Source: Polaromonas sp. (GTDB lineage Bacteria > Pseudomonadota > Gammaproteobacteria > Burkholderiales > Burkholderiaceae_C). From it: DNA of 64,000 bases. The stretch covers positions 18,970 through 82,969 of the forward strand of contig NZ_JABBPE010000003.1 of the NCBI RefSeq assembly GCF_012927455.1, written 5' to 3'. Of the stretch, positions 361 to 57,441 are shown one piece after another (the first letter of the stretch is position 1; every line of letters begins with the position of its first letter). The notes under the pieces were generated by a model. It did not search any database. It had not been told where the DNA came from and saw nothing but the letters and a program-made list of their open reading frames with translations. A program made the translations under genes and the position numbers.

Positions 361-410
361 TTGCTATTATTTTGATAGCTGTTAGCGCCCGTATCTATTG
401 GGCTACAGCC
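361..410 (+). repeat. GCTAT-N7-ATAGC interspersed repeat, copy 1
   Basis: GCTAT-TATTTTG-ATAGC-TGTTAGCGCCCGTATCTATTGGGCTACAGCC. Confidence 0.85.
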
Positions 411-426
411 GTTTTTACAGCCTATT

Positions 427-681
427 TCAGCTCAATTCCGCAATCAGGTCGATGTACATCTGCATGGCTTCGTCCTGCGACGTGCCCTTGAGCTTGTTCC
501 AGGCGTCCCACTTGGCTCTGGCCACCATGTCGCTGAAACCGGGTTTTTGCTCAGTGTTGTCCCCCGTGCTGCCTTGCTTGTAGAGGGCGTAGATTTTCAG
601 CAGCGTGGCATTGTCGGGGCGCTCGCTGAGGTACTTCGAATCGGCCATGGCTTGGGCGAAGGTGGCTTGCAGGTCTGACAT
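427..681 (-). CDS. Acyl-CoA-binding protein (ACBP)
   Basis: 84 aa with ACBP motifs LLKIYALYKQGSTGD, KPGFSDMVARAKWDAW and AMQMYIDLI. Confidence 0.92.
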   Translation of the reverse strand: MSDLQATFAQAMADSKYLSERPDNATLLKIYALYKQGSTGDNTEQKPGFSDMVARAKWDAWNKLKGTSQDEAMQMYIDLIAELS

Positions 682-838
682 GGGAACGCTCCTTGTTCAA
701 AAAAATTGCACCCCGAAGAAGGGCTGGGGTCGTGGGGCTATCTTAGCGACCGCCTATTTTCCAAGGCAGGCGGCCTTGAGTTGCTGCTGCGGGGTTGCGG
801 TGAGTTGCGGTGGGCAGCACCAAGTCAGGGCTACTTAA

Positions 839-887
839 TGGCTGCAACCCAATGAAATCGTGCGCAAGTAGCTATGCTTTTAATAGC
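839..887 (-). repeat. GCTAT-N7-ATAGC repeat, copy 2
   Basis: Reverse complement GCTAT-TAAAAGC-ATAGC-TACTTGCGCACGATTTCATTGGGTTGCAGCC. Confidence 0.8.
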
Positions 888-900
888 TAACCAAGACCCA

Positions 901-1668
901 TCAGGGGGCAAAGCGGCGCGCGGCGACCTCCAGCAAGCCGTCAAAAATCAGGTTGTCCACCAGCTCAAACCTGACCGACAGGCTGGGTGCCATCTTCCAG
1001 CCGGCGCCGCCGGTCATGATGCACTCGGGCGTCTCGCCGCAATGGCGCGTGACGTTTTCCACCATGCGCTGCACCGCGCCGGCGATAGCGAAGGTGCCGC
1101 CGCTGGTCAGCGCGTCACTGGTGTTGGTGGGAAAGTCGCGCACGTCGCCGGTGGGCACATGCAGGCCGGCGGTGCCCGATTCAAGCGCGCGCAGCATGAT
1201 GCCGTGGCCGGGCAGGATGATGCCGCCCAGGAATTTTCCGGAGGCGTCAATCGCCTCGACCGTCACCGCCGTACCGACCATGACCACCACGCAGGGCTTG
1301 CGGCTGCCACGCGCCAGCAGGCGGTGGTACGCCCCTATCATGGCGACCCAGCGGTCGGCTCCCAGGCGCGCCGGGTGGTCGTAGCCGTTGCTCAGGCCGG
1401 CTTCCTGCGGACTTGACACGACCCAGACCGGGGCGACGTCCCACAGGTCCATCTGCTCTGCCAGGCGCCGCTTGATGGCGTCGCCCGCGACGATGCAGCC
1501 GAGAATTCGCGACGGTGGCGGCAAGGCGCGCCATTCGTCCTCGGCCAACCGGTCGATGTTTTCCAGAAACACCGCGCCTTGCGCCAGCAGCTTGGCGCCC
1601 ACCACGGGCGTGTCGTAGTGGGCCCATTTCAGGCGGGTGTTGCCTACGTCAAGCGCTAGAAAGGTCAT
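901..1668 (-). CDS. coaX: Type III pantothenate kinase
   Basis: [16 protein letters not shown] motif, [28 protein letters not shown]. Confidence 0.92.
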
Positions 1669-1755
1669 TGGGCTGAATTATGAACAGGTTTGCCGCGTGC
1701 GCCCGAGGTCGCCCGGCTAAAGTTTTTTGACTGGACACGGCGTCAGGGCTCGCCA

Positions 1756-2424
1756 TCAAATCAGGCCGAACCAGCAAGCGCGCTGCACCGCCGCCAGCTT
1801 GTTGTCGACCTTGAGCTTGGTCATGGCATTGGCCAGGTGAAAGTTGACGGTGCGCTCGCTGCAGAGCAACAACTCGCCGCTTTTGCGCGCCGTCGTGCCC
1901 TGAAAAGCCAGCTTCAGGCATTCGAGTTCGCGCGGACTCAAGGGGCTGCGGGCCTCTGCCAACGCCCGCTTGAGCAGCGGCCAGATGTTGAGCGCGGACC
2001 AGGCCAGCGCCGCCGCCTCGCTGCGGTCGTGCCACTGGCGCGGGCTGAAAAGATAGCACTCGAAAGCGCGCCCAACCGTCAACGGAAACGCGATTCGGAC
2101 GACGCTCTGGTAGCCATGACCGAGCCAGAGCCTGCGCCAGCGACTGAGATTTTCGAAAGCCGACTTGGATATATCCTGCCAGGCCACCAGCGGCGCATCG
2201 GAATCGCGCCAGAGCGCGCCAAAATCCCGGCTCTCGGCTAGCGCCTGGGCGGCTTCAAGCAGGCGCGGCGGATGCAGGGCCAGCACCAGTCGGTCCTCAT
2301 CACCGGCGAAAGGGTCAGGGCCCAGCACCATCAGGGCTTCGACCGAAAACTCATGCAGGGCGCACATCCAGTCGCTGATGACGCCGTCCAGGCTGACACT
2401 GTCAAAATTAGCAGGTAGCTGCAT
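1756..2424 (-). CDS. LuxR-family regulator with a degenerate autoinducer-binding domain (LuxR solo)
   Basis: C-terminal LuxR HTH (LSPRELECLK...SERTVNFHLANAMTKLKVDNKLAAVQRA). N-terminal ~160 aa has autoinducer-domain-like remnants (HPP, PLVAW, HGY). No luxI in the window. Confidence 0.8.
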   Translation of the reverse strand: MQLPANFDSVSLDGVISDWMCALHEFSVEALMVLGPDPFAGDEDRLVLALHPPRLLEAAQALAESRDFGALWRDSDAPLVAWQDISKSAFENLSRWRRLWLGHGYQSVVRIAFPLTVGRAFECYLFSPRQWHDRSEAAALAWSALNIWPLLKRALAEARSPLSPRELECLKLAFQGTTARKSGELLLCSERTVNFHLANAMTKLKVDNKLAAVQRACWFGLI

Positions 2425-2514
2425 TAGCTCGGCCGCAGGAGAACAAGGACAATGCAGCCAAATGTCAAATACGTCATCAGTGAGGATTCAGCTTGTGCTT
2501 GAGAGGTTTTTAAA

Positions 2515-3816
2515 GTGAGGGTGGTTGACGTCTACGCACGGCTTGCGCAGCGTCCCTGGTTTCAGTGGCTGCGCGAGGAGTTGGTCGTGCCGCCGTTGGA
2601 GCCTATTTTGCATCCATCGCCCCGGCGCCTTTGGTGGCTGGGGCTGATGATGCTTTTGGGCAATGCCTTGTTTGCCTGGATCTGGTCGGTCTGGCTGCCG
2701 CAACCCTACGAAAACCTGACGCTGCGGGTTATCGCCAGCCTGCTGGGCTTCAGCCTGATGGCGCCGCAAGTGAGCCTGCACCCCGACAGCGCGCTGGTGC
2801 AGAAAATTTTTGGTCTCCTGTTCTGGCTGGAGTTACCGGTCTTCTTCAGCTGGATGTACCTGTGCAACAGCGGCAGCGCCGTCTGGCTGGCGACGCTGGC
2901 GGTCATGGTGCTGGTTTACTACCATGTCACCGACTGGCGCTTCGCCACCCTGGGCATCATCACGGGCAGCCTGCTGGCTTGGGTGCTGTTTCGCTTCTTG
3001 GGACCGGGCGTCCCACCGATCGCGGAAAACCAGCGCATCGTCCATGCCGTGGTGTTTGCATTTGCGTGGACCTGCGCCCTCGTGCTCAGCCTGTCGTCGG
3101 CCACTTTGCGGCGGACACAACTGGCGCACGCGCTGACGACCATGGGCATCATGGCGCATGAACTGCGAACGCCGTTGTCTACGGCGGCGCTGATTGGTGA
3201 CGCGATTGAACTGGAAGTCGAGCGCCAACCGGACAATCCACGCTCGCCGCAGCTGGAAAAGCTGGCTTCGCGCCTGCACGCGCTGGCGCGCAACATGAAC
3301 CACCAGATCGACACGCAGATCGCCAATGCCAAACTGATGCAGCTGCCGAGCCACGCCGAGCGGATTTTTGCTGCCGAGCTGGTGCAGCAGGTGGTGGCGT
3401 CCTATCCCTTCGCCGCCAGCCGCCAGCGTGACTGCGTGCGGGTGCTGATCCACCGTGACTTTACCTTCCTCTCGTCATTCACCCAGTTTTCCCAGGTGCT
3501 CGACAACCTGATGAAAAATGCACTGTATTCGCTAATGGCAGCTGACTCCAGGTACCATCCGGGCGCGCTGCGCATCGAAGTCGGCATGCTGCACCAGCGT
3601 GGCCGCATCGTCGTGAGCGACGACGGCATGGGCATTGATGCTGCGCTGCTGCCGCATATTTTCAAACCGTTCTTCTCCAGCAACCACGGCACCGGCCACG
3701 GCCTGGGCCTGGCTTTTTGCCAGCAAGTGGTGCGCAGCGCGAGCGGCAGCATTTCCGTGAAATCACAATTCGCCGTTGGCGCCACGTTCACGATTGAGTT
3801 GCCGCTGGCGGGCTGA
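2515..3816 (+). CDS. CqsS/LqsS-like membrane sensor histidine kinase (no receiver domain)
   Basis: About six hydrophobic helices including LPVFFSWMYLCN; H-box MAHELRTPL; N-box DNLMKNA; G1 DDGMGI; F-box FKPFFS; G2 GHGLGL. Adjacent to the CqsA-like synthase. Confidence 0.85.
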   Translation: MRVVDVYARLAQRPWFQWLREELVVPPLEPILHPSPRRLWWLGLMMLLGNALFAWIWSVWLPQPYENLTLRVIASLLGFSLMAPQVSLHPDSALVQKIFGLLFWLELPVFFSWMYLCNSGSAVWLATLAVMVLVYYHVTDWRFATLGIITGSLLAWVLFRFLGPGVPPIAENQRIVHAVVFAFAWTCALVLSLSSATLRRTQLAHALTTMGIMAHELRTPLSTAALIGDAIELEVERQPDNPRSPQLEKLASRLHALARNMNHQIDTQIANAKLMQLPSHAERIFAAELVQQVVASYPFAASRQRDCVRVLIHRDFTFLSSFTQFSQVLDNLMKNALYSLMAADSRYHPGALRIEVGMLHQRGRIVVSDDGMGIDAALLPHIFKPFFSSNHGTGHGLGLAFCQQVVRSASGSISVKSQFAVGATFTIELPLAG

Positions 3817-3862
3817 GGCTGTGGCCATGACCGTGCTCCAGCGCTGATTTTCAGGAACCCAA

Positions 3863-4864
3863 ATGACTCCGACCCCCTTATCCTTTGCCCTGTACCGCCG
3901 CCCGGGCGGCGTGATTTTTCTCGATGACGATAGAGACTACCTTGAGATGCTGGCCGAAGTCATGCCGCCCGACTGGTACGTTCGCATGTTCCTGCGTCCC
4001 GTGGCCTGCATTGAGCAGTTGCTGAAGGAGACCCTACAGTGGGAGGCAGACGCCTGGGCACAGCAGGAAATCATCAATCGCTGGCGCGAGGGGGTCTCAC
4101 TGATTCCGCAGATCCTGCAGTACTGGCGTGACGACGGCATAGCGCGTTTTGCGCTCTCCCGGGTCTGCGTGGTGGACTACGCCATGCCGGCGATGAGCGG
4201 GCTGCGGGTCTTGAGCGAACTCACGGGCTGGTCCGGTTCGCGTATTTTGCTGACGGGCCGGGCCGATGAGCAACTCGCGGTATCGGCTTTCAATCGCGGT
4301 CTGATCGACCAGTTCATTGCCAAGCAGTCGCCCGGGATTCGCCTGCGCCTGACCGAGGCCATCCAGGGCCTGCGCCACATTCCAGACACACGCCATCAAC
4401 AGATCTGGCGCGCCACCTTGTCGCGCGCGCAGCATGCGCTGCTGTGTGAACCAGCGATTTCAAAAGCGCTGGAAAAGTTGACGCTGCAGCAGGGCTGGAT
4501 AGAGCGGGTGGTGATAGGCGCACCGTTCGGCATATTGGCGCTGCACCCGCAAGGTGGCGCAAGCTGGCTGCAACTGGAGCCCTCCGAAAACCTGCAGGAG
4601 CTCGCTGAAATGGCCGAATCCCAAGGCTTCGACGCGACCACAGTGGGGGACATCCGCGCCGGCAGACGACTCGTGGACCTGGAACTGCAGCTGGCCCTGG
4701 GTGGCGGCCAAAAACCCCGGCCGCAGCAGGCCTTTGCCATCGCCAGCGAGCCGGCGCGCCTGTACGCCGCCATCTTTGCGGTCCCGGAAAGCTTCAGCTC
4801 CGGTGAGGCGTCCAGTTACGCGCGTTTTATCACCACCGTGGGCGATCGTGAACTGCAGGACTAG
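3863..4864 (+). CDS. LqsR-like response regulator (split receiver, non-HTH output domain)
   Basis: VIFLDDD at the N-terminus, a long insertion, phospho-acceptor VVDYAMP at D105 (LqsR uses D108), ILLTG and FIAK. No recognisable DNA-binding domain. Confidence 0.8.
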   Translation: MTPTPLSFALYRRPGGVIFLDDDRDYLEMLAEVMPPDWYVRMFLRPVACIEQLLKETLQWEADAWAQQEIINRWREGVSLIPQILQYWRDDGIARFALSRVCVVDYAMPAMSGLRVLSELTGWSGSRILLTGRADEQLAVSAFNRGLIDQFIAKQSPGIRLRLTEAIQGLRHIPDTRHQQIWRATLSRAQHALLCEPAISKALEKLTLQQGWIERVVIGAPFGILALHPQGGASWLQLEPSENLQELAEMAESQGFDATTVGDIRAGRRLVDLELQLALGGGQKPRPQQAFAIASEPARLYAAIFAVPESFSSGEASSYARFITTVGDRELQD

Positions 4865-4873
4865 ACACCGGGA

Positions 4874-6139
4874 CTAAGAGGAAGCCTGAGCAGCGCGGGC
4901 ACGCCGTGCGATCGGCCAATCCCAAGGTTTGACGAGGGGCGCAATCTCGCGCGCCACCGCCTCTACGTGGTCCAGTTCCGAATCCATCAGGCCGGCGTTC
5001 AACGTGAGCCGCATCATCGCGCGCTTGCTGCTGGTGGCCGGCGCGCAAAACATGGCCGAAAACACGTCGCGCTCCTCCAGTCGGTCACGCAGCACCATGG
5101 TGTCGCATTCCATGCCAACTTCAAGCGCGATGATTTGCTGGCTTCCCTGGTGAATCGGGTAACCCAGATCACTCAGGCTGGCGCGCAGGCGCGTAGTGTG
5201 CGCCAGCAGGCGGCTGCGTGCCTCATCACTTTGGCGAATCACTTCCAGCGTGGCCGTCAGCCCGGCAATTTCGTGCGGCAGCAAGCTGGAGCTGAAAATA
5301 TTGGGAAAGCTGGTACAAAAAATGTAGTGCCGCATGTGCGCCGGTGCCGTGAAGAAACCGGCGCGCCCGGCAAAGGCTTTGGCCAGGCTGGCGGTGATGA
5401 AGTGCACCCGCTCCGACAAACCGAGCGCGGCGCACAGGCCGGCGCCCTGAGGGCCGTGGGTGCCCAGCGAGTGCGATTCATCGACCAGGATCATGCAGCC
5501 GTACTGTTCAGCGACCTCAACGACTTCCACCAGCGGGCAGAGCGCGCCTGTCGTGCTGTAGACGGAATCCACCACCACCAGGCCAGGTCCGGTCCTGGCA
5601 ATCATGCGCGCCAGGTGGGCCGGGTCGTTGTGCCGAAACGCACAGGCCGGCGCCCGTGCCGCATGGGCGCCCTCCCAGAGGGACGCATGCGCCAGCGAAT
5701 CCAGATAGACCGGTGTTTGCGCATCGGCAATGGCCTGCAGCAAACCCACATTGGCGGCATAGCCTGACTGGCAGATGAAGCCATCGTCTTTGCCAACCCA
5801 ATTGGCCAGGGCCAACTCCAGCGCACGGGCTGGATGCTGGTTGAGGTGAAACACGCCGGACTGGACCACAAACTCCTGCTGCTTGCGCAGCGCATCGACC
5901 TGGGCCTGGACGATGAGCGGGTGCCCCGTTAAGCCCAGGTAGTCATTGCCGTCCAGCCGTATTGCATTGGAGCCGGGCGGTTTGCCGTGCAGGACAAATT
6001 TTCCGCCCCACTGCTGATTCCAGCGCGGTGTGAAGTCGCGTGCGATGCGCTGGGTCAGCTGCGTTCCAAGGGAAGGGTTGCCCAAAGGGCGGGCGGCAGG
6101 GGCGAGTTTGCGTTCGAGTGCTTGCATGAAGAGTTCCAA
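4874..6139 (-). CDS. cqsA: Alpha-hydroxyketone autoinducer synthase (CqsA/LqsA/JqsA family, PLP-dependent AONS fold)
   Basis: GNDYLGL, VVDSVYSTTG, VDESHSLGTHG, PLP-lysine region ITASLAKAFAGRAG, IFSSSLLPHE. Clustered with CqsS/LqsR-like genes; no biotin genes nearby. Confidence 0.88.
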   Translation of the reverse strand: MELFMQALERKLAPAARPLGNPSLGTQLTQRIARDFTPRWNQQWGGKFVLHGKPPGSNAIRLDGNDYLGLTGHPLIVQAQVDALRKQQEFVVQSGVFHLNQHPARALELALANWVGKDDGFICQSGYAANVGLLQAIADAQTPVYLDSLAHASLWEGAHAARAPACAFRHNDPAHLARMIARTGPGLVVVDSVYSTTGALCPLVEVVEVAEQYGCMILVDESHSLGTHGPQGAGLCAALGLSERVHFITASLAKAFAGRAGFFTAPAHMRHYIFCTSFPNIFSSSLLPHEIAGLTATLEVIRQSDEARSRLLAHTTRLRASLSDLGYPIHQGSQQIIALEVGMECDTMVLRDRLEERDVFSAMFCAPATSSKRAMMRLTLNAGLMDSELDHVEAVAREIAPLVKPWDWPIARRARAAQASS

Positions 6140-6184
6140 TAGAAATGAACTCTCATTGAAAACTGTTACACAAATTGATACGTC

Positions 6185-6213
6185 TTACCCCCTGTTAGAA
6201 CTGTCAGGGGTAA
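6185..6213. promoter_or_regulatory. Lux-box-like inverted repeat upstream of cqsA
   Basis: TTACCCCCTG-TTAGAACTGT-CAGGGGTAA. The core CCTG-N10-CAGG (6191-6208) has the same geometry as the lux box ACCTGTAGGATCGTACAGGT. Centre lies 60 nt upstream of the cqsA start, in an AT-rich intergenic region. Confidence 0.55.
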
Positions 6214-6336
6214 AACGCTATCGCCATGAATTATCCAATTAGACTAGAACTATATAACTCATTACTAAATATTTTTGTAGTTATTTTTATTTACTCTAAC
6301 TGGTCTCAAAAAGTAACTTGTTGCAATACCGCACAC

Positions 6337-6789: not shown

Positions 6790-6999
6790 CTGGGAACCTG
6801 TCGTATTGAAAGTTGAATCATCTCCATGTTGCGCCGTCAGGCGTGCGTTGGGCAGTAGGCGACCATGGTGAAACTGAAAGTATTTTCCAGCGATCCACCA
6901 CTGCATGGCAAGTTGAGGAGGCAACTTTTGCAGTGCGCGTTCGATGGCAGGCAAAATCAAGCGAAGCGCAAACACAGCAAGCAACTACCGGAGACTCTA

Positions 7000-7914: not shown

Positions 7915-7944
7915 CGAGCAAACCCGCGTCAGGGCTCGGCAATA

Positions 7945-17464: not shown

Positions 17465-20400
17465 ATGACCGACCTGTCCGCCGAATACAAAGCGCTCGCC
17501 AATTACCGCCCCACGCACAAGGTGCGTTTTGTCACGGCCGCCTCGCTGTTCGACGGACACGATGCCGCCATCAACATCATGCGGCGCATTTTGCAGGGCA
17601 TGGGCGCCGAGGTGATTCACCTGGGCCACAACCGCAGCGTCGAAGAGGTGGTGACGGCCGCCCTGCAGGAAGACGCGCAGGGCATCGCCATCAGCTCCTA
17701 CCAGGGTGGCCATGTCGAGTACTTCAAATACATGGTCGACTTGCTGAAAAGCCGCGGCGGCGAGCATATCCAGGTCTTTGGCGGCGGCGGCGGCGTGATT
17801 GTGGGCCCGGAAATCCGCGAGCTGCAGGCCTACGGCGTGGCGCGCATTTTCAGCCCCGAGGACGGCCAGAAGATGGGCCTGGCCGGCATGATTGGCGAAA
17901 TGGTGATGCGCTGCGACCAGGACCTGACCGGCTTTGCGCCGACCGACGTGCAAGCCATCGAAGGCCATGGCGAAATGGCCTGGCGGGCGCTCGCGCAACT
18001 CATCACTGCGCTTGAAAACGAGAAGGCTAATGAGGCTGTAGTCCAAGCGGTACGGGCGCAAGCTGCTATCAAAAAGATACCAGTTTTGGGCATCACGGGC
18101 ACCGGTGGCGCCGGCAAGTCATCGCTCACCGACGAGCTGATCCGCCGGCTGCGGCTGGACCAGAACGACCAGTTGCGCATCGCCATCATCAGCATAGACC
18201 CGTCGCGCCGCAAGAGCGGCGGCGCCCTGCTGGGCGACCGCATCCGCATGAACGCCATCAATCCCTGGAATTCACAGGCCCCCACGCTTGTCGCTTCGCG
18301 TGCCGCGCTGCCCCCCGAGGGGGCTGAACTTGCTTGGGGCGGCCCGGCGCTGCGTTCGTTGCCACCCGGCGGCCAACGTGTTTTCATGCGCTCACTCGCC
18401 ACGCGCGACTTCGGCTCGGAAATCAGCCCGGCCTTGCCCGACGTGATTGCCGCCTGCAAGGCCGCCGGCTTCGACCTGATCGTGGTTGAAACCTCCGGCA
18501 TTGGGCAGGGCGACGCCGCCATCGTGCCGCATGTCGATGTGCCGATGTATGTGATGACGCCGGAGTTCGGCGCCGCCAGCCAGCTGGAAAAAATCGACAT
18601 GCTGGACTTTGCCGAGTTCATTGCCATCAACAAGTTTGACCGCAAGGGCTCGCTCGATGCGCTGCGTGATGTGGCAAAACAGGTGCAGCGCAACAAGGAA
18701 GCCTGGAGCACGCCGGCCGATCAGATGCCGGTGTTTGGCACCATGGCCGCGCGCTTTAACGACGACGGTGTGACAGCGCTGTACCAGGCGCTCAAGCCCC
18801 GCCTGGCCGCGCTCGGCCTGCATTTTGAGGACGGCATACTGCCCGAGGTCAAGGTGCGCCACAGCACCAACCAGACCCCCGTGGTGCCGGCGGCCCGCAC
18901 GCGCTACCTGGCCGAAATTACCGATACCGTGCGCGGCTACAAGAAACGCGGCCACGAGCAAGCCACGCTGGCCCGCGAAATCCAGCAGTTGCGCGCCGCC
19001 GCCGCCATGCTGACCGCGAGCAAGCCCGACAAGGCCCGAGCCGCCGAGGCCGCCATCGACCTGGCGGTGCAGCGCGAGCAAATTCAGGAGCCGTCTGCTA
19101 AAAAACTGCTGGCCCAGTGGCCGTTGATGCAGAAAGCTTATGCCGGCGACGAATACGTGGTGAAGATCCGCGACAAGGAAATCCGCACGGCGCTGACCAC
19201 CAAATCACTTTCCGGCACCACCATTCGCAAGGTTTGCCTGCCCAAATACGAAGACCACGGTGAAATCCTCAAGTGGCTGATTCTGGACAATGTGCCCGGC
19301 AGCTACCCCTACACAGCCGGAACCTTTGCCTTCAAGCGCGAGGGCGAAGACCCGACCCGCATGTTCGCCGGCGAAGGCGACCCGTTTCGCACCAACACGC
19401 GCTTCAAGTTGCTGAGCGACGGCATGGCCGCGAAGCGCCTGTCCACCGCGTTTGACTCGGTCACGCTGTATGGCAACGACCCGCATGTGCGGCCTGACAT
19501 TTACGGCAAGGTCGGCAATTCGGGCGTGTCGATTGCCACGCTGGACGACATGAAGGTGCTGTACGGCGGCTTTGACCTGTGCAGCCCGACCACCAGCGTG
19601 TCCATGACCATCAACGGCCCGGCACCGAGCATTCTGGCCATGTTCATGAACACCGCCATCGACCAGAACCTGGAAAAATTCAAGGCCGACAACGGCCGCG
19701 AAGCCACCGATACGGAAGCCCTGAAGATCCGGGAATGGGTGCTGGAGAACGTGCGCGGCACGGTGCAGGCCGACATCCTGAAAGAAGACCAGGGCCAAAA
19801 CACCTGCATCTTCTCGACCGAGTTCAGCCTGAAAGTGATGGGCGACATCGCCCAGTACTTCGTGCACAACCGGGTGCGCAACTTCTACAGCGTCTCAATC
19901 AGCGGCTACCACATCGCCGAAGCCGGCGCCAACCCGATCAGCCAGCTGGCCTTCACGCTGTCCAACGGCTTTACCTTTGTGGAAGCCTACCTGGCGCGCG
20001 GCATGCACATCGACGACTTCGCGCCCAACCTGTCCTTTTTCTTCAGCAATGGCATGGACCCCGAATACACCGTGATGGGCCGCGTGGCGCGCCGCATCTG
20101 GGCCGTCGCCATGAAAGAGAAATACGGCGCCAACGAACGCAGCCAGAAGCTGAAATACCACATCCAGACCTCAGGCCGCAGCCTGCACGCGCAGGAAATC
20201 CAGTTCAACGACATCCGCACCACGCTGCAGGCGTTGATCGCGATTTACGACAACTGCAATTCGCTGCACACCAACGCCTTTGACGAAGCCATCACCACGC
20301 CGACCGAAGACTCGGTGCGCCGCGCCATGGCGATCCAGCTCATCATCAACCGCGAATGGGGCCTGGCGAAAAACGAAAATCCGTCACAGGGCGCTTTCAT

Positions 20401-23002: not shown

Positions 23003-23052
23003 GGACGCAATCGTCGCATATTGCACGGCTGGTTTTTTATTGCCTCTAAAGC

Positions 23053-23100
23053 GCTACTGTTTTAATAGCTGCTTGCGCCTGTATTTATTGGGCTAGACCC
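23053..23100 (+). repeat. GCTAT-N7-ATAGC repeat, copy 4
   Basis: GCTAC-TGTTTTA-ATAGC-TGCTTGCGCCTGTATTTATTGGGCTAGACCC. Confidence 0.85.
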
Positions 23101-23290
23101 ATATTTCATTACTTATTTTGCGTTCAGACGGTCGGCTGGCCAGCCAGTGTTATGCCTTACATCCGCTTGCATGACCTGACCAAATGGCGCACTCTTTACC
23201 GGCGCTTAGCAGCCCCACCCGCCGGCTGGCCCGTTATCAGGCTTAGTGCCTCATCAAATGCGGCATGCAACACAGGAAGTGAGCGACCAC

Positions 23291-25738: not shown

Positions 25739-25770
25739 GCCACGTCGCATTTTGGACCCCGCCTTAGTTC

Positions 25771-25820
25771 GCTATGTTTTTTATAGCTGACTGCGCCCGT
25801 AAAACATGGGCTAGAGGCTC
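25771..25820 (+). repeat. GCTAT-N7-ATAGC repeat, copy 5
   Basis: GCTAT-GTTTTTT-ATAGC-TGACTGCGCCCGTAAAACATGGGCTAGAGGCTC. Confidence 0.85.
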
Positions 25821-26218
25821 TTTTTAATCAGAATTTGTACTCAATCAAGTGACGCCCTGACCGGTGTCCCTGAACCGGTGCAGTTCCGGCGCAGTTCCGG
25901 TGCAGTTCATTCCCTCATTGAACGGAAGGCGCAGAACAGGTCATCAGCCGGTTCAGCAACGAGCCGCCGGGCCACTGCCCGCGTTTGACCGCACCGAATC
26001 TGACGGGCTGGCTGGCTGGCTGGCTTTGTCCGTCCGTTCACACCCAAGCCGCAGCTGCTTTGGAGATGGCGCGCCTGGCGCTTAACGCAAAACTACTTAA
26101 GGGTCTTACCCGGTAGCACGGCCCTGCCCCCGTAGCTACGATTGGCATAGCGTTTCACGGCGGTTAGCCTGCGCTTGTAGCGGTGCCCAGCCCGACTCCG
26201 TGAATTCAATCCCATCAC

Positions 26219-31660: not shown

Positions 31661-31695
31661 TGACACCGACCGTTGGGACAGCAAGACGGTGATTT

Positions 31696-31745
31696 GCTAT
31701 AAATTTAATAGCTGCTCGCGCAAGCAGCGCTTGCGTCAGGGGACT
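31696..31745 (+). repeat. GCTAT-N7-ATAGC repeat, copy 6 (divergent tail)
   Basis: GCTAT-AAATTTA-ATAGC-TGCTCGCGCAAGCAGCGCTTGCGTCAGGGG. Confidence 0.75.
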
Positions 31746-31763
31746 AAAATGCTTAAAAATTAC

Positions 31764-48462: not shown

Positions 48463-48521
48463 TTGAAGCCCCTGGTGCTGATCGCTTCGCCGCCACCCCT
48501 GCCATCAAGGCAGCTGTAATT

Positions 48522-48570
48522 GCTATTAATTCAATAGCTGCCTGCGCCCGTCCTGATTGGGCTAGAGCCT
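48522..48570 (+). repeat. GCTAT-N7-ATAGC repeat, copy 7 (between tsdA and ttrB)
   Basis: GCTAT-TAATTCA-ATAGC-TGCCTGCGCCCGTCCTGATTGGGCTAGAGCC. Confidence 0.85.
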
Positions 48571-48601
48571 TATTTGATACATAAATTCGGCTCAAACCCG
48601 G

Positions 48602-49690: not shown

Positions 49691-49828
49691 AACAAGGTTC
49701 CTTCTGAGAGACTGTTCGACTTTGCGAAAAGCGCTTGACAAATTGGCGCTGGCCAAGGGCCTGGGCCAGCCGGCCAGCGCGCCCCGTAAGACGCGATGGC
49801 CTGGCGGCCTGAAGCGCGCGCTACGGCG

Positions 49829-50860: not shown

Positions 50861-51087
50861 TTCAAATTCCTGTTTGCTGCAAGTTAGGCCTGAGGGCTTA
50901 CATGCATCCTAGGAGCGAAGGGGTCTTGAAGCTATTGGATGTTTGCGGCGGTCGCCTATACAAAGTTGCCAATTTACACAGAGTGGAATTTGTGGCAGGC
51001 AGTAGCTAGCCATGCAGCTGCGCGCAGGCCTGCGCGCCACAAGACTGCTGAGCGGCTTCCCAGAAGTGGCTCTCCAGCAGAACTTTT

Positions 51088-51136
51088 GCTATGTTTTTCA
51101 TAGCTACTTACGCCCGTATTTATTGGGTTATAGCCA
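51088..51136 (+). repeat. GCTAT-N7-ATAGC repeat, copy 8
   Basis: GCTAT-GTTTTTC-ATAGC-TACTTACGCCCGTATTTATTGGGTTATAGCC. Confidence 0.85.
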
Positions 51137-51299
51137 TTTTTCTTGTAAAAACATGACTTATCGCCCCCCATTGCAAGCGGTCTTTGCAGTTCGTCCCTGT
51201 TTCCGGGCAAAAAGCGCGGCAGTTCTGCGCGCGCTGATTGAAGCCGAACGCCACGCTCCAGGCGTCAAACAAAACCCCCTGACCTCTTTCCGCCAATCC

Positions 51300-51313
51300 T
51301 TGATTTTGCGCAA
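51300..51313. promoter_or_regulatory. Possible FNR/CRP-family site in the tsdA-adh divergent region
   Basis: TTGAT-TTTG-CGCAA versus the FNR consensus TTGAT-N4-ATCAA (two mismatches in the right half). Confidence 0.3.
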
Positions 51314-51602
51314 ACCCGCCTGCACGGTCTGGTATGAGACTGTTGCATATTTAACAAGATCTACCAGGCTTTTGAAATAGGGCGAGCGGCAAAATCATTC
51401 TTGGCTTAGCCAGCTCCGCCAAATAGCCTAGACAGGCGCTTTCGCCGGGAACCCGGCCATCCATGCGCGACAAAAAAACAAGCATTAAAAATGCAGTGCT
51501 GCACGCAAGAACTTTCCGGTGACGCAGCCCAGGCAAGATCCATGAACAACCGATTCCCTCAACCCTGCTAATTAAAAGACCGGCCCTGAAAGGACCCTCG
51601 CC

Positions 51603-52640: not shown

Positions 52641-52721
52641 GAACCAGGGGCCGGTGACCTGCTTGCTGCGGGCACCACCCGCAGCCGGCGGCTCGCCTGG
52701 ATGGACGGCAGCAGTCAATAT

Positions 52722-52769
52722 GCTATGTTTTTTATAGCAATTTGCGCACGTAAGCCCTGGGCTACCGGC
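52722..52769 (+). repeat. GCTAT-N7-ATAGC repeat, copy 9
   Basis: GCTAT-GTTTTTT-ATAGC-AATTTGCGCACGTAAGCCCTGGGCTACCGGC. Confidence 0.85.
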
Positions 52770-52826
52770 TTGAAACACCTCTACTCAAGGGTTTACTCTC
52801 AGTCTCGAAACCAATGTCCCGGGAAG

Positions 52827-52856
52827 CTCGGGTTAGCGCGGCGTAACCCGACCTAC
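52827..52856 (-). repeat. GTAG-type REP-like hairpin
   Basis: Minus strand reads GTAGGTCGGGTTA-CGCCGCGC-TAACCCGAG: a GTAG tetranucleotide followed by an imperfect palindrome. Confidence 0.55.
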
Positions 52857-52896
52857 ATGTGAAGAGCAACGAGTGGCGACGTTCGTTGTATAAATA

Positions 52897-52944
52897 AGCC
52901 GCAGCGCGCTAATTACGTGCGTTAGCAGCTATTTATTTAATAGC
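52897..52944 (-). repeat. GCTAT-N7-ATAGC repeat, copy 10
   Basis: Reverse complement GCTAT-TAAATAA-ATAGC-TGCTAACGCACGTAATTAGCGCGCTGCGGC. Confidence 0.8.
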
Positions 52945-52996
52945 AAATGCAATGCCAAAAAACTGATTTCTTCGACGAAGAACATGAAGCAAGCCG

Positions 52997-55771
52997 ATGA
53001 CAGTCCATAAGACCCCTGCACCGGTCAGCCACAGCGATTCGGACGCCGCGCCGCATGCGCTGACGATCGACGCGCTGGCCGCGCAGCATGATGTTCAACT
53101 GGAACTTGGTCTGTCAGCAGAGCAACTTGGACAGCGCAAGAAAAAATACGGGCCCAATCGGCTGCCCGAAGCCCCGCCGCGTTCTGCCTGGCGAGTGTTT
53201 TTCGCGCAGTTCAAAAGTATTTTGATCATGATTTTGATCGGTGCGGCGACGCTTGCCGCGCTGATCGGCAACACCAAGGATGCACTTGTCATTGTGGCTG
53301 TCGTCCTGATCAATGCCACCGTCGGCTTTTACCAGGAATACCGCGCTGAACAAAGTCTGGCGGCCCTCAAGGGCATGTTGCCGGTGCGGGCACGCGTGCG
53401 CCGGGAAGGCAAAAAAATTGAAGTCCCGGCTGAGGATCTGGTGCCTGGGGATGTGGTGCTGCTGGAGGCGGGCGACCCGGTGCCGGCTGACGGCAGATTG
53501 CTTCTTGCGGCGGGGCTGGAAGTAGACGAGTCAGCCTTGACGGGCGAGTCGCTGCCGGTCGGCAAGCAGCTTGACGCGCTTCAAGCGCCGGACGTTCCCC
53601 TGGCCGAGCGCACCAACATGCTCTACATGAACACCCTGCTCACGCGCGGCCGGGCCGAGATCATCGTCACGGCAACAGGTGCCCACACGGAGATGGGACA
53701 GTTGTCGCAGGAACTCGCTGCAACGACTGAAGTGCCCACGCCGCTGCAACTCCAACTCGACCAGTTGGGCAAGCGCCTGGGCGCGATTGCCCTAACGCTG
53801 GTAGCCCTGCTGTCCGGCCTGGCGCTCTGGCGCGGCGACGGCCTGGCGCATATTGCGCTGGACGCGATTGCGCTGGCCGTCGCCGCCATGCCCGAAGGTC
53901 TGCCGGTGGTGGTGACGGTGACACTCGCGCTAGGCATGCGCAACATGGCGCGCCACCAGGCCATTGTCAAGCGCCTGGCTAGTGTTGAAACACTGGGATG
54001 CACGACCGTCATCTGCTCTGACAAGACCGGAACGCTGACGCTTAACCAGATGACGGCGCGCGCTTTCTTTTATCAAGGCGCACGCTTTGACGTCTCTGGC
54101 GAGGGGTATGCGACGGATGGAGAAATCAGTGCGGCCGGCGCGGTGGACGCGGCTTCAGCCCTTCCCGATCTGCATGCGCTGTTGCTGCCGCTGGTCGCCT
54201 GCAACGACAGCCGGGTTGACAATGGAAAAGTCATCGGTGACCCGATGGAGGGGGCATTGCTGGTGCTGGCGCACAAAGGCGGCCTCAATCCCGCGCAGGT
54301 CGCCGAAACACTGCCGCGCCTGGCGGAAATTCCGTTCGATGCGGTCCACAAGTTCATGGCCACTTTTCACCGTGAAGACGGCCAGGTGCGGATGTTCGTC
54401 AAAGGTGCGCCTGACGTGTTGCTGGCGCTTTGCACGCAGGTGCTCAATGCAAATACACAAGGTGCGGAAGGTGCGGAAGTTGCGGGGGGTCCGCTCGACG
54501 TTGCTGCACGCCAGCTCATAGAGGCGCACTACACGGAACTCGGCAACCAGGGCCTGCGCGGGCTGCTGGTCGCCTCGCGGAGCATTTCTGACAGCGCGTT
54601 TGACGCATCAGGCGATCTCGCTGCATGGGTCCGCGACCTCAGCTTCGTCGGCTTGATCGGGCTGATGGACCCACCCCGCGCCGAGGCCAAGGTAGCCATC
54701 GCCGAATGCCGGGCGGCGGGCGTTACCGTCAAGATGATCACCGGTGACCACCAGCTAACCGCATCAGCCATCGCGGCTGAACTTGGGCTCAAGGGCAAAG
54801 CCATGACGGGCGCAGAGCTTGACCGAATGAATGCGGAACAGCTGGCCGCCGCCATAGACAATGTCGCCGTTTTCGCCCGCGTGACCCCCACTAACAAGGT
54901 CAAGATCGTGCGCGCGCTGCAGAAAAAGGGCCATGTAGTGGCCATGACCGGCGACGGCGTGAATGACGCACCGGCTTTAAAAAGCGCCGACATTGGCGTT
55001 GCCATGGGCAGCGGCACGGCGGTTGCAAAGGCCGCCGCCACTGTGGTCCTGCTTGATGACAACTTCGCGACGCTGGTCAGCGCGGTACGGCAGGGGCGCA
55101 CACTCTACGACAACATCGTGAAGTTCGTGCGCTTCCAGTTGTCCACCACCATAGGCGCCATCCTGTCCGTATTCCTTGCGCCGCTGCTGGGCCTGCCCGA
55201 ACCCTTTACAGCGGTGCAAATTCTGTGGGTCGCGATCATCATGGACGGACCGCCCGCTGTGTCGCTCGCGCTCGACGCCGCGCGCCCGGGCATCATGCAC
55301 GAGCCGCCGCGCAGCCGGTCCACGCCGCTGCTCACCCTCAACCGCCTGGGCAAGGTCATTGCCTACGGCGTCACCATGACGGTGGGAACGCTGGCGGTGC
55401 TGTACTTCTGCCTGCAGGCCGGCATGGCCCAGCAGGCCCCAACCCTGGCGTTCACTACCTTCGTGCTGTTCCAGTTTTTCAACGTGTTCAACGCACGCGT
55501 CGAACGCGGCACGGCATTCAACCGGCAGTTCTTCAAAAACGCGATGCTCTGGGCTTCGCTGGCCGGCGTGATCGGCCTGCAGGTTGTTGCCGTGCATTGG
55601 CCGCCTGCCCAGTCCATTTTTGGAACCTGGCCCCTGTCCCTCGGTGAATGGGGCATCGCCACCGGCGTAGCGGCCACCATCTTGCTGCTGGAAGAAGCGC
55701 GCAAGCTGACGGTGGCTTTGTTTGAACGCCTGCGTTCAGGAACGAAGAAGCCTGGACCCCGCACACAGTAG
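52997..55771 (+). CDS. Cation-translocating P-type ATPase (type IIA, Ca2+-like)
   Basis: TGES, M4 PEGL, CSDKTGTLT, KGAPD, MITGD, GDGVNDAPAL. Confidence 0.92.
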   Translation: MTVHKTPAPVSHSDSDAAPHALTIDALAAQHDVQLELGLSAEQLGQRKKKYGPNRLPEAPPRSAWRVFFAQFKSILIMILIGAATLAALIGNTKDALVIVAVVLINATVGFYQEYRAEQSLAALKGMLPVRARVRREGKKIEVPAEDLVPGDVVLLEAGDPVPADGRLLLAAGLEVDESALTGESLPVGKQLDALQAPDVPLAERTNMLYMNTLLTRGRAEIIVTATGAHTEMGQLSQELAATTEVPTPLQLQLDQLGKRLGAIALTLVALLSGLALWRGDGLAHIALDAIALAVAAMPEGLPVVVTVTLALGMRNMARHQAIVKRLASVETLGCTTVICSDKTGTLTLNQMTARAFFYQGARFDVSGEGYATDGEISAAGAVDAASALPDLHALLLPLVACNDSRVDNGKVIGDPMEGALLVLAHKGGLNPAQVAETLPRLAEIPFDAVHKFMATFHREDGQVRMFVKGAPDVLLALCTQVLNANTQGAEGAEVAGGPLDVAARQLIEAHYTELGNQGLRGLLVASRSISDSAFDASGDLAAWVRDLSFVGLIGLMDPPRAEAKVAIAECRAAGVTVKMITGDHQLTASAIAAELGLKGKAMTGAELDRMNAEQLAAAIDNVAVFARVTPTNKVKIVRALQKKGHVVAMTGDGVNDAPALKSADIGVAMGSGTAVAKAAATVVLLDDNFATLVSAVRQGRTLYDNIVKFVRFQLSTTIGAILSVFLAPLLGLPEPFTAVQILWVAIIMDGPPAVSLALDAARPGIMHEPPRSRSTPLLTLNRLGKVIAYGVTMTVGTLAVLYFCLQAGMAQQAPTLAFTTFVLFQFFNVFNARVERGTAFNRQFFKNAMLWASLAGVIGLQVVAVHWPPAQSIFGTWPLSLGEWGIATGVAATILLLEEARKLTVALFERLRSGTKKPGPRTQ

Positions 55772-55782
55772 GAGGACGCACC

Positions 55783-57309
55783 GTAACCACCGCACCCAAC
55801 CCGTCCTCCGGGGCATCGTCGTCGCCCAGGTCCAGCGCCAGCATCGTCAAACGCGCCGGCCTGTTTGTCGCGCTGGCCGCATTGCTGGCCATCTTGTGGA
55901 TGCCCACGCCACAGGGCCTGCCACCCGCCGGTCAGGTGATGCTGGCCATCCTCGCCTTAGCCGTGGTGGTCTGGATGACCGAGGCGCTCGACTATGCGGT
56001 GAGTTCGGTGGTGATAGGCGCGCTGATGATTTTCCTGCTGGCCTATGCGCCCGATTCGGCCAAGCCCCTGGCTGCCGACATGGGCACCGGGGCGGCGCTC
56101 GGCCTGGCCTTGTCGGGGTTTTCCAACAGCGCCGTCGCGCTGGTGGCGGCGGCCTGCTTCATTGCCGCGGCGATGACCGCCACCGGGCTGGACCGGCGCA
56201 TCGCGCTGGTGGTGCTGTCCAAAGTGGATGCCGACACCAACCACATCGTGTTGGGCGCCATGGTGGTGGGTCTTCTGCTGTCCTTCGTCGTGCCGAGCAC
56301 GACTGCGCGCGTGGCCTGCCTGGTGCCCATCATGATGGGCTTCATCCTGGCCTTCAAGGTCGACAAACGAAGCCGCTTTGCCGGACTGCTGGTCATCACC
56401 GCCGCGCAGACCGCCAGCGTCTGGAACATCGGCATCAAGACCGCCGCAGCCCAGAACATGGTGGCGGTGGGCTTCATTGAAAAACAGTTTGGCACCAGTA
56501 TCAGCTGGACCGAGTGGTTCATCGCCGGCGCGCCGTTTTCGGCCTTCATGAGCATCGCGGTTTACTTCATCATGACCCGCATGATGAAGCCCGAGATGAA
56601 AGAGATTGCCGGCGGCCGCGCCACCATACAGTTGCAGCTTGAGGCCATCGGGAAGATGACGCTGAAGGAGTGGAAGCTGCTGGTGATCGTGCTGGTGTTG
56701 CTGGGTTTTTGGTCCACCGAAAAGGTGCTGCACAACTTCGACACCTCGTCGACCACGATTGCCGCCATTGCCCTGATGCTGGTGCCGCGCCTGGGCGTGA
56801 TGGACTGGAAGGCATCGCAGCGCGGATTCCCGTGGGGGACGGTGGTGCTGTTCGCCGTCGGCATCAGCGTGGGCACCGCCCTGCTGAAGACGAACGCCGC
56901 CGGCTGGCTGGCCAACCTGATCGTGCACAACCTCGGGCTGCAGCAGGCCAGCGCCTTCGCCATCCTGATGCTGCTGTCGCTGTTTTTGATCGTTATTCAC
57001 CTGGGCTTCGCCAGTGCCACGGCGCTGGCGTCCACCATGATTCCGATCATCATCAGCGTACTCACGGCGGTGCAGACGCCGGGCATCAACGTGATCGGCA
57101 TGACCATGCTGTTGCAGTTCGTGGTGAGCTTTGGTTTCATCCTGCCGGTGAATGCGCCGCAAAACATGATTGCCTACAGTACGGACACCTTCGACGCCCG
57201 CGACTTCATCCGCACCGGCCTGGTGATCACACTGGCCGCCGCCGTGTTGCTGGTGATCTTCGCGCTGACCTATTGGCCGTGGATGGGCTACATGAGCAAG
57301 GCGGTCTGA
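55783..57309 (+). CDS. DASS-family (SLC13) di/tricarboxylate or anion symporter
   Basis: About 12 TM; WMTEAL, TGLDRRIAL, VPSTTAR, ILPVNAPQNMIAY. ORF track starts at TTG 55882, but the frame is open from an AGGAGG-preceded GTA at 55783. Confidence 0.85.
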   Translation, partial: VTTAPNPSSGASSSPRSSASIVKRAGLFVALAALLAILWMPTPQGLPPAGQVMLAILALAVVVWMTEALDYAVSSVVIGALMIFLLAYAPDSAKPLAADMGTGAALGLALSGFSNSAVALVAAACFIAAAMTATGLDRRIALVVLSKVDADTNHIVLGAMVVGLLLSFVVPSTTARVACLVPIMMGFILAFKVDKRSRFAGLLVITAAQTASVWNIGIKTAAAQNMVAVGFIEKQFGTSISWTEWFIAGAPFSAFMSIAVYFIMTRMMKPEMKEIAGGRATIQLQLEAIGKMTLKEWKLLVIVLVLLGFWSTEKVLHNFDTSSTTIAAIALMLVPRLGVMDWKASQRGFPWGTVVLFAVGISVGTALLKTNAAGWLANLIVHNLGLQQASAFAILMLLSLFLIVIHLGFASATALASTMIPIIISVLTAVQTPGINVIGMTMLLQFVVSFGFILPVNAPQNMIAYSTDTFDARDFIRTGLVITLAAAVLLVIFALTYWPWMGYMSKAV

Positions 57310-57393
57310 AACTACTGCAACGCAATGGTCCAAATACCCAGGAAACAGCATTGTTGCCGCAGCATCGGTTGAATTCGGATCTGCCTGTAAATT

Positions 57394-57441
57394 GCTATTT
57401 ATTTTATAGCTGCTTATGCCCGTGTATGTTGGGCCATGGCC
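57394..57441 (+). repeat. GCTAT-N7-ATAGC repeat, copy 11 (between convergent DASS and tcuB)
   Basis: GCTAT-TTATTTT-ATAGC-TGCTTATGCCCGTGTATGTTGGGCCATGGCC. Confidence 0.85.

Follow-up and report, generated by a model that had tools for sequence, protein, structure and literature searches.

A dispersed two-palindrome repeat with a GCTAT-N7-ATAGC core in Polaromonas and related Comamonadaceae

In many bacterial genomes, dispersed palindromic repeats account for a measurable share of the sequence, and how they function or spread is known for few of them, chiefly the repetitive extragenic palindromic (REP) sequences of gamma-proteobacteria and their REP-associated tyrosine transposases (RAYTs). Here we describe a high-copy repeat built around a GCTAT-N7-ATAGC core in a 64,000-nucleotide stretch of Polaromonas sp. 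(contig NZ_JABBPE010000003.1, positions 18,970 to 82,969 of the forward strand; hereafter the window), the copies of which are best supported as an ancient, vertically inherited and chromosome-confined family. The host group is ecologically important, with members from glacier surfaces, freshwater and polluted sites. The closest species representatives to the window show 87-90% protein identity, and 36-74% of the window's 31-mers are present in sediment, glacier and ice metagenomes.

Eleven copies lie among ordinary genes

The exact core GCTAT-N7-ATAGC occurs nine times in the 64-kb window (starting at 363, 871, 25771, 31696, 48522, 51088, 52722, 52928 and 57394), against a chance expectation of 0.03 (mean) and a maximum of 1 in dinucleotide-preserving shuffles of the window, and two further cores differ by one mismatch, at 18065 (GCTAT..ATACC) and 23053 (GCTAC..ATAGC). 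A profile hidden Markov model (HMM) trained on 116 copies, 108 of them from genomes other than that of the window, returned the same 11 sites only, at 27.8-67.3 bits, the next-best match (9.6 bits) being the reverse-strand echo of the palindrome; the eleven cores listed in a preliminary description of this DNA are thus real copies. Oriented by their tails, eight lie on the plus strand and three (871, 18065 and 52928) on the minus strand. No transposase or recombinase gene stands beside any window copy, the neighbours being ordinary metabolic and transport genes.

Copy 1 (359-419, core 363-379, plus strand, 50.0 bits, exact core) sits between the stop of an ACBP gene (427-681, minus strand) and the next minus-strand gene, antisense to both, and copy 2 (832-889, core 871-887, minus strand, 27.8 bits), which has a degenerate tail, begins 12 nt past the stop of coaX (901-1668, minus strand) on the same strand as that gene. 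Copy 3 (18023-18082, core 18065-18081, reading GGTAT..ATAGC on the element strand; minus strand, 40.1 bits) is placed antisense within icmF, directly before the segment coding for the P-loop. The region between the divergent DUF6352 (minus) and DUF6600 (plus) genes holds copy 4 (23049-23113, core 23053-23069, GCTAC..ATAGC, plus strand, 46.4 bits), and copy 5 (25768-25835, core 25771-25787, plus strand, 50.1 bits) follows in sense 30 nt past the DUF6600 gene stop, the next gene being an ABC ATPase gene (plus). Convergent genes flank copy 6 (31692-31760, core 31696-31712, plus strand, 32.5 bits), in which another inverted repeat, GCGCAAGC-AGC-GCTTGCG, takes the place of the second palindrome described below.

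The top-scoring copy 7 (48518-48591, core 48522-48538, plus strand, 67.3 bits) lies antisense between two minus-strand genes, for a cytochrome c and a 4Fe-4S protein, while copy 8 (51086-51156, core 51088-51104, plus strand, 39.6 bits) occupies the divergent region between a cytochrome c gene (minus) and an alcohol dehydrogenase (ADH) gene (plus). Copies 5 and 8 are also present in the related strains X1 and X7. Copy 9 (52718-52790, core 52722-52738, plus strand, 34.3 bits), which an X1 contig spans, begins 78 nt past the ADH stop, and copy 10 (52883-52948, core 52928-52944, minus strand, 33.3 bits), with a variant second palindrome (ACGCACGT..GCGCGC), stands 49 nt upstream of a gene for a P-type ATPase. 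These two (52718-52948) face each other tail to tail as an inverted pair separated by 93 nt, with the ADH and P-type ATPase genes on either side; close pairs resembling them are rare elsewhere (L020, L012 and L015, where L numbers denote the loci compared). Copy 11 (57389-57460, core 57394-57410, plus strand, 32.5 bits) stands between convergent genes, for a Na/sulfate symporter and an unassigned product. Just past it, at 57473-57494 (plus strand), lies GCCCAGTTTCAGGCGGCTGGGC with a T-run behind it, a terminator-like hairpin which overlaps the convergent gene at its 3' end; the actual terminator there seems to be distinct from the repeat. The convergent, divergent and co-directional settings given in the preliminary description stand, except for the copy at 18065, which is located within the icmF coding sequence.

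The repeat is a composite unit with two palindromes

We computed information content per position from the 116 copies and from 80 copies not chosen by the search pattern (the unbiased copies). Conservation spans about -4 to about +64 from the core start, giving a unit of about 65-75 bp with a sharp 5' edge. Read 5' to 3', the unit consists of an A/T lead (often ..ATT), palindrome 1 (GCTAY-N7-RTAGC), TGC-N2, palindrome 2, TAGAGGCC and a tail. In Polaromonas, palindrome 2 is made of the box GCGCCCGT, six variable nucleotides and TGGGC, the box and TGGGC together forming a second short palindrome, GCCCG-N7-TGGGC, with a 7-nt centre as in palindrome 1. After TAGAGGCC come (G/T)ATTT or TAAAA, a few free bases and YTNAAAA, which give the tail its ATTT...AAAA form. 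The element had been described as a single core followed by an oriented tail of about 30 nt; an oriented tail is real, but its length was understated, since conservation reaches about +64, and the picture of one core plus a tail gives way to a 65-75-bp unit with a second palindrome.

The spacer of palindrome 1 is exactly 7 nt, as had been proposed: a perfect 5' arm was found at this spacing only (48 of the 80 unbiased copies), and an arm with at least four of five matches occurs at spacer 7 in 70 of the 80, the remaining spacings being at chance level. Its sequence, earlier called free, is indeed variable, but it is 82% A/T with a preferred central A-T-T (1.0-1.4 bits). At the position following palindrome 2, CTAC (the reverse complement of GTAG) occurs in 13 of 72 copies, CTGG in 11 and CTAG in 8, with other sequences in the rest.

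Variant arrangements also exist. Symmetric forms, in which the TGCTTGCGCC.. tail flanks one core on both sides (..GGCGCAAGCA-GCTAT-N7-ATAGC-TGCTTGCGCC..), occur in L029 (4016-4088), L067 (2804-2881) and L012 (1693-1775), and L277 carries at about 3095-3115 a lone core with 6-bp arms, GGCTAT-TGATTTC-ATAGCC, from which the usual tail is absent. Of the exact cores in the loci, about 16% have no recognisable tail.

Distribution and lineage dialects

In a scan covering one genome per species, the exact 30-nt pattern occurs at at least 110 loci, nearly all of them Polaromonas among the matches listed, with a few further loci among those matches in Xylophilus, Hylemonella, Simplicispira and other Comamonadaceae. 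The HMM found 198 copies in total across 350 loci and the window, and the density of 11 copies per 64 kb extrapolates to several hundred copies per genome. In metagenome runs containing the window's organism, word depth spikes on the element, the bin holding copy 4 having 18-360x the depth of adjacent bins. Among loci chosen by coaX, most of the top-ranked Polaromonas have a copy or a decayed remnant right after the coaX stop, and the site holds the element in at least 12 Polaromonas species; no GCTAT element was found downstream of coaX in about 15 loci labelled Hydrogenophaga. In species without the element there, a different repeat of about 100 nt (..CCAGCGGGGGCCGCGGAACTGGCTTTGCCAGGCCGCAGGCCCCGTCCCCTGCAAGGGGAGAGGAGGCTACACGAAGTGAGCCTCAACAGGGGTGA..) fills the coaX-downstream region (L273, L284, L286 and L293, about 2790-2890; inverted in L279, L281 and L282).

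Scanning metagenomes for the core followed at 3-12 nt by GCTTAT-N5-AAGCG revealed a second dialect on more than 120 contigs. Although any gap of 3-12 nt was allowed, the distance from core to GCTTAT is 7 nt in 119 of 119 second-dialect copies, and the remainder of the unit (TAGAGGCC, ATTT.., AAAA) is identical to that of Polaromonas. Palindrome 2 of this dialect is (CTA)GCGCTT-N7-AAGCGC(TAG), so that by lineage palindrome 2 reads GCCCG-N7-TGGGC, GCGC..GCGC or (CTA)GCGCTT-N7-AAGCGC(TAG), palindrome 1 being unchanged throughout. Because the second-dialect contigs share the architecture of the unit, the family spans Comamonadaceae with lineage dialects, the second of them reaching into genomes of the Acidovorax type.

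A resident plasmid carries few copies. In 150 kb of the P. naphthalenivorans CJ2 plasmid pPNAP01 there are 2, against about 25 expected at window density, an approximately ten-fold depletion. Both copies (L351, 36070-36138 and 37423-37493; plasmid 186-187.5 kb) lie in one orientation and bracket one ATPase gene within a BREX-2 cluster (pglX to pglW).

Fragments of the unit have been reported before. Tong, Schliekelman and Mrazek (2017) listed two nameless "potential novel motifs" (PMC5217627): in P. naphthalenivorans CJ2, ATAGCT(N)22CAAAAG, with 125 copies, 81% intergenic and 14% genic, of which 34 have convergent neighbours, and in A. ebreus TPSY, GCTTAT(N)5AAGCG, with 114 copies, 44 convergent and 4 divergent. 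These independent counts agree with the gene contexts seen here. Both motif pairs are fragments of the GCTAT unit: the 3' arm of palindrome 1 with one T added gives ATAGCT, palindrome 2 takes the form GCTTAT-N5-AAGCG in the second dialect, and the copy in L019 is an exact fit to the CJ2 pair. That study, in contrast to the present description, gives pentamer and hexamer pairs with their gene context only, and no full unit, linkage, name or function (PMC5217627). The preliminary description knew of no named account of the element; we likewise found no name, but its fragments had already been listed as candidate motifs. The family has thus been glimpsed in the literature and left uncharacterised, and is best filed as a dispersed palindromic intergenic repeat. 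A MITE (miniature inverted-repeat transposable element) is reportedly described in the JS666 genome paper, and is said to be one classical MITE.

Copies favour gene ends in either orientation

Among 94 intergenic copies with called neighbours, convergent genes flank 40 and divergent genes 11; the remaining 43 are in co-directional regions, 25 in sense and 18 in antisense. The 25:18 ratio of sense to antisense is no different from even. Copies are enriched at gene 3' ends, the core ending at a median of 14-16 nt after the stop codon. Using GC skew as a proxy, we observed no replication-strand bias, the top strand falling on the locally G-rich strand in 50 copies and on the C-rich strand in 44. 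The absence of an orientation preference in an asymmetric 65-nt unit argues against RNA and replication-strand roles and for a role as double-stranded DNA.

None of the 5 copies in 47.5-58.5 kb overlaps a terminator-like or sigma-70-like sequence, and the stems are 4-5 bp with no T-tract. The element is thus not a simple terminator, a role doubted from the outset, given the lack of terminator-like overlap in those 5 copies together with the 11 of 94 copies in divergent regions and the 18 of 43 co-directional copies that are antisense.

The palindrome arms show no covariation

We asked whether the palindromes vary as paired stems would. In the would-be helices of 72 unbiased copies aligned without gaps, 83.1% of cells are paired; shuffles that break the partner relation average the same 83.1%, 314 of 500 attaining it, and cells altered on both sides number 6 against 7.5 expected. 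Neither palindrome thus covaries. At the innermost pair of palindrome 1 we counted T-A 44 times, C-A 14, T-G 14 and C-G 3, the expectation for C-G under independence being 3.6. Both arms accept the same transition at an equal rate and independently, suggesting two equivalent half-sites read as sequence and not a hairpin kept by pairing. Palindrome 1 therefore has the equivalent half-sites, fixed spacing and lack of compensatory change of a dimeric site for a putative binder, and the dimeric protein site proposed earlier would fit the fixed N7, the independent arm changes (GCTAC 14, GTAGC 14, both 3) and the absence of orientation bias.

Palindrome 2 behaves differently between dialects, where it changes on both sides yet stays an inverted repeat and keeps its 7-nt centre. 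A symmetry requirement acts on palindrome 2 there, whether from structure or from a co-evolving dimer. The folding energies of its region are only slightly better than those of shuffled sequence (z -0.8; flanks -0.3). On the top strand a G-T pair stands at the base of palindrome 2 in 40 of 80 copies, and the top strand folds better in 48 copies and the bottom strand in 29. A search of Rfam gave no match at gathering score in the window, with only noise at E up to 10 on copy 7.

The copies are old

Outside the arms and the GC box, the copies have diverged until their similarity is close to random. Over 73 nt, the copies of the window share 57% of positions (maximum 70%), with 96% identity in the arms, 36-48% in the loops, 35% in the 3' part and 26-37% in the flanks. 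Across 193 copies, pairwise identity has a median of 55% and a 99th percentile of 71%, and the only highly similar pairs are orthologues. The profile of 12 coaX-site copies from different species is paralogue-like (arms 94%, loops 56% and 30%, flanks 30-37%), and the sharing of loop variants within coaX sub-clades indicates vertical descent. By species, the coaX site holds the element, a decayed copy or another repeat, with unalignable flanks.

We found no terminal inverted repeats, the 5' end being a palindrome and the 3' end an A/T tail with no inverted repeat shared between them, and no direct repeats indicative of target-site duplication in the flanks of the copies compared (window and coaX loci). 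Close inverted pairs number about 5 among about 190 copies. Across 7.6 kb holding five window copies, contigs from six related metagenome runs (X1, X3, X5, X7 and X10 among them) showed no empty site and no joint that skipped an element, contigs often ending at the repeat, and no gain or loss of copies was seen among the related strains in metagenomes, where contigs likewise tend to break at the repeat. An exact-protein look-up of ACBP, made for empty sites, gave no match on record. Orthologous ADH loci were set aside as an empty-site comparison, as the gene is widely transferred and uninformative, and so was the region downstream of ACBP, where neighbouring genes vary among species and give no clean alignment. 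Collectively, these data show that the copies are old and are not products of recent transposition. Metagenome assemblies of Polaromonas-type organisms break at the repeat, which is moreover open to misreading as coding sequence.

A second repeat in the window provides a comparison. At 18269-18376 (plus strand), icmF contains a copy of BRE, a repeat of about 90 bp with 69% G+C that is often tandem (Hot et al. 2011, PMC3110155). This copy, a homologue of the BRE sequences in list S1 of that paper, forms an in-frame insertion of 108 nt (36 aa) absent from most orthologues, and is 89-96% identical to copies in L083, L052, L108, L082, L048 and L047. Other variants occupy the same spot in the orthologues L111, L115, L118 and L124. 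A recently mobile repeat has just this appearance, a true insertion with near-identical copies, and the GCTAT element does not share it. BRE was also considered as the identity of the GCTAT element and rejected, the list S1 sequences (PMC3110155) being unrelated.

Copies within genes keep protein length

Of 117 classified copies, 23 lie within called open reading frames (ORFs); among 14 inspected, 4 read as spurious ORFs and about 10 as real coding sequence. The coding copies that read A-I-x-x-I/V-A use a single frame of the core in all verified cases. The icmF copy scores 48 with a position-specific scoring matrix (PSSM), against a null maximum of 16.5 over 34,000 positions, and in the linker that precedes the P-loop of the G domain the encoded protein aligns without gaps to its orthologues in Limnohabitans, Ramlibacter, Cupriavidus and other genera. 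The same site scores 45 in L114, 41 in L118, 35 in L116, 28 in L113 and 28 in L180, is decayed in L111 (4) and L112 (-26), and falls to about -40 to -90 in outgroups. The match is made by A/T-ending codons (ATA, GTA, CAA, AAA, TTG), in a genome with about 80% third-position G+C, together with several amino-acid changes. icmF genes of the L114 type have 11 extra residues that match the 3' part of the element. A test of synonymous sites in icmF was mixed, with 10 of 11 codons identical to L114 and 1 of 10 to L112.

In putA (L017, L077) the exact 30-nt pattern and most of the tail are present with a length difference of at most one residue from orthologues, and putA orthologues, even in alpha-proteobacteria, natively carry A-I-x-x-I-G/A at the site. 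In an alpha-2-macroglobulin gene (L079, L098) the pattern lies inside a conserved native motif with no added length; these two loci were picked by a pattern scan of 596 Gb, so that protein motif and codon chance may explain the case. We considered whether the icmF copy is an in-frame insertion of the RPE type and rejected this, as orthologues of other genera have the same length, and the same applies to putA and alpha-2-macroglobulin. The intragenic copies may be old insertions later trimmed to the functional linker length, or may reflect in-place remodelling, by conversion from the many copies where chance similarity gave a start, or by selection or drive for the motif.

A RAYT-like gene beside gltB

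The preliminary description raised co-occurrence with a RAYT. With the E. coli RAYT as query (sequence verified against PDB 4ER8), tblastn gave no match in the window or in 270 loci; a weak match in L103 was rejected as not a transposase. The same query against metagenomes produced one distant match, on a contig carrying the second dialect, which encodes a 242-residue Y1_Tnp protein scoring 73.6 bits against the NCBIfam REP-associated tyrosine transposase model (cut-off 80). Homologues of this protein (63-97% identity) are found on chromosome-sized contigs in 5 of 10 Acidovorax clusters read and also in Verminephrobacter; for each of those five clusters, the chromosome-sized member that is named was seen on a single contig. 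In 4 of 4 loci examined, from three genera or lineages, the Y1_Tnp gene (about 232 aa; L405, 3998-4726; L474, L476 and L478, 4001-4720) lies directly upstream of gltB; the organisms are that of L405, Acidovorax sp. 69, Acidovorax LjRoot129 and V. eiseniae. A conserved motif, TTTTGATATGTCCCC(A/G)AT, stands between the Y1 gene and gltB.

A single-copy, gltB-adjacent Y1 gene on chromosome-sized contigs is what a domesticated RAYT would look like. At L405, L474, L476 and L478 it is not flanked by the repeat, and neither the window nor the roughly 1 Mb of Polaromonas loci searched yielded a Y1 gene. Co-occurrence in the proposed sense finds no support in these loci. As a candidate reader or mover of the repeat, the gltB-linked Y1 protein is possible but unsupported. 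With REP and REPIN sequences, the GCTAT unit shares hundreds of extragenic palindromic copies in both orientations, having two palindromes where they have one; it lacks the GTAG/CGTC foot, a repeat-flanked RAYT, REPIN doublets and near-identical copies.

Interpretation and alternatives

Taken together, the GCTAT unit falls short of what defines a REPIN-RAYT system, a MITE, a terminator, an Rfam RNA or a recombinase core. We tentatively favour, at somewhat less than an even chance, an ancient composite repeat resembling REP sequences and bacterial interspersed mosaic elements (BIMEs), whose palindromes may be read as DNA sequence by a putative protein. The arms would then be constant because a protein reads them as DNA, not because they form an RNA hairpin; such a reader might bind palindrome 1 as a dimer and make a second contact at palindrome 2. 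By analogy with gyrase and IHF on the BIMEs of E. coli, its role could be orientation-independent at gene ends, as a nucleoid, topology or insulator site. The original spread was probably duplicative, since linkage, order and spacing of the modules never vary.

Several observations weigh against this proposal. The unit holds about 45-50 bits of information across about 65 nt, far above the need of one binding site, and arm conservation could stem from recognition by a transposase and not from host function. The symmetry of palindrome 2 kept across dialects hints at a structural need (hairpin or cruciform) or a co-evolving protein. The icmF copy has decayed in L111, L112, L115 and L117, so not every copy is under selection, and window copies are without regular spacing, since two 17-kb stretches carry none. 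Finally, GC skew over 4-8 kb (and over the 64-kb window) tracks replication direction weakly.

Of the alternatives, a non-autonomous REP/REPIN- or MITE-like mobile element, moved by a transposase encoded elsewhere, such as a Y1 (HUH) enzyme acting on single-stranded hairpins, is unlikely. Its arms would be conserved as enzyme recognition sites, and it would account for a dispersed, high-copy, modular repeat with a sharp 5' edge and lineage-specific dialects, for a coaX site that varies by species, and for the Y1_Tnp gene on an element-bearing contig, the homologues of which look like a domesticated RAYT. Yet terminal inverted repeats and target duplications are missing, no near-identical paralogue pair exists, the most similar pairs being orthologous, the Y1 gene is unflanked by the repeat at four loci and was not seen in the window or the Polaromonas sequence, the GTAG head appears in only 13 of 72 copies, inverted doublets are scarce, and all three intragenic cases are length-neutral, whereas the BRE in icmF is a true 36-aa insertion. 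Those length-neutral cases are what a motif written in place without transposition would produce, by short-patch conversion, an uptake-type bias of the kind known for uptake signal sequences (USS) and DNA uptake sequences (DUS), or direct selection, an origin we hold to be improbable. The icmF, putA and alpha-2-macroglobulin proteins align with a difference of 0-1 residue and match through rare A/T-ending codons, the A-I-x-x-I/V-A copies share one core frame, and the family is chromosome-enriched, plasmid-depleted, equal on both strands and divided into dialects. A linked 65-nt unit of this information content is, however, too long for hundreds of substitutional origins, and copies only 57% alike make a poor conversion substrate. 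The family is also strongly intergenic (23 of 117 in ORFs; 14% in genes in Tong et al., PMC5217627), the 11 extra residues of L114-type icmF match the 3' part of the element, and L079 and L098 may reflect chance in the 596-Gb scan. The broader proposal that the motif is no transposon but a chromosomal signature, installed and kept in place by substitution through conversion, uptake-like drive or selection for a Comamonadaceae-specific DNA-binding protein, is likewise improbable, if by a hair less so. If it were true, a substitution-installed motif would overwrite icmF and putA coding sequence with protein length kept, and would be comparable to uptake sequences or architecture-imparting motifs, though long and composite.

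An RNA element, in the form of a two-hairpin 3'-UTR (untranslated region) module for stability, processing, read-through attenuation or ribosome stalling, is very unlikely. The enrichment at 3' ends close behind the stop codon, the G-T pair in half of the top strands and the better folding of that strand (48 vs 29) speak for it, but the sense and antisense counts are near even despite a strongly asymmetric unit, the 4-5-bp stems have neither T-tract nor covariation and fold hardly better than their flanks, copies also sit in divergent promoter regions and genes, and Rfam gave no match. Least credible of all is the earlier suggestion that a tyrosine recombinase or IS110/Piv-type enzyme crosses over at the core, its overlap being 7 bp. 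A spacer fixed at 7 nt between inverted arms, with Neisseria dRS3 as precedent, is in its favour. Known tyrosine-recombinase cores, however, have 9-13-bp arms around a 6-8-bp overlap, and those seen here measure 5 bp; the window copies have no recombinase nearby, we saw neither an element integrated in a core nor any polymorphism for insertion or excision; and the spacer sequence differs among copies, so that recombination between them would be blocked.

Returning to the favoured REP/BIME-like repeat, its extreme divergence combined with invariant arms, the absence of GTAG and of a flanked RAYT, and its length-neutral genic copies all depart from the REPIN model. If a specific binder exists, it would represent an unknown layer of chromosome organisation or transcription insulation, and if the gltB-linked Y1 protein were the partner, RAYT biology would extend to beta-proteobacteria and to a new type of substrate.

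Comparison with known systems

BRE (PMC3110155), like the GCTAT element, is a dispersed repeat of Bordetella and Comamonadaceae able to sit in coding sequence, and even in the same icmF gene, but it differs in sequence, is G+C-rich, has copies 89-96% alike and is a true insertion. Neisseria dRS3 and NIME resemble the unit in having a short inverted repeat with a variable centre of fixed length in hundreds of dispersed copies. dRS3 itself, unlike the GCTAT unit, has 6-bp arms around a centre of 8 nt, stands on both sides of variable repeat units and serves phage and IS110-type elements as an integration target; the structural parallel drawn in the preliminary description is therefore one of analogy only, as neither the integration nor the bracketing of repeats is seen here. 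USS of Pasteurellaceae and DUS of Neisseriaceae share occurrence on both strands, chromosomal enrichment, dialects and length-neutral genic copies; they are 10-30 bp and far commoner inside genes, whereas the GCTAT unit is about 70 bp, composite and mostly intergenic.

REPIN-RAYT systems of Pseudomonas and enterobacteria are similarly old, vertical and chromosome-bound, and the single-copy, gltB-adjacent Y1 gene offers a parallel in the Acidovorax branch at least. The GCTAT family is unlike them in that Y1 is unflanked, inverted doublets are rare, no near-identical cloud surrounds a master sequence and GTAG is lacking. From the REP and BIME sequences of E. coli and other enterobacteria the unit differs in its unrelated sequence, the absence of a conserved GTAG head, far more diverged copies, and the presence of two palindromes with 5-bp arms and 7-nt centres in place of one imperfect palindrome of 35-40 nt. 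It nevertheless resembles them in occurring on the chromosome by the hundred and in either orientation, mostly outside genes, at 3' ends and in convergent regions with few copies in divergent ones; in being a mosaic of short palindromes and fixed linkers; in having a species-specific consensus; and in being rare on plasmids.

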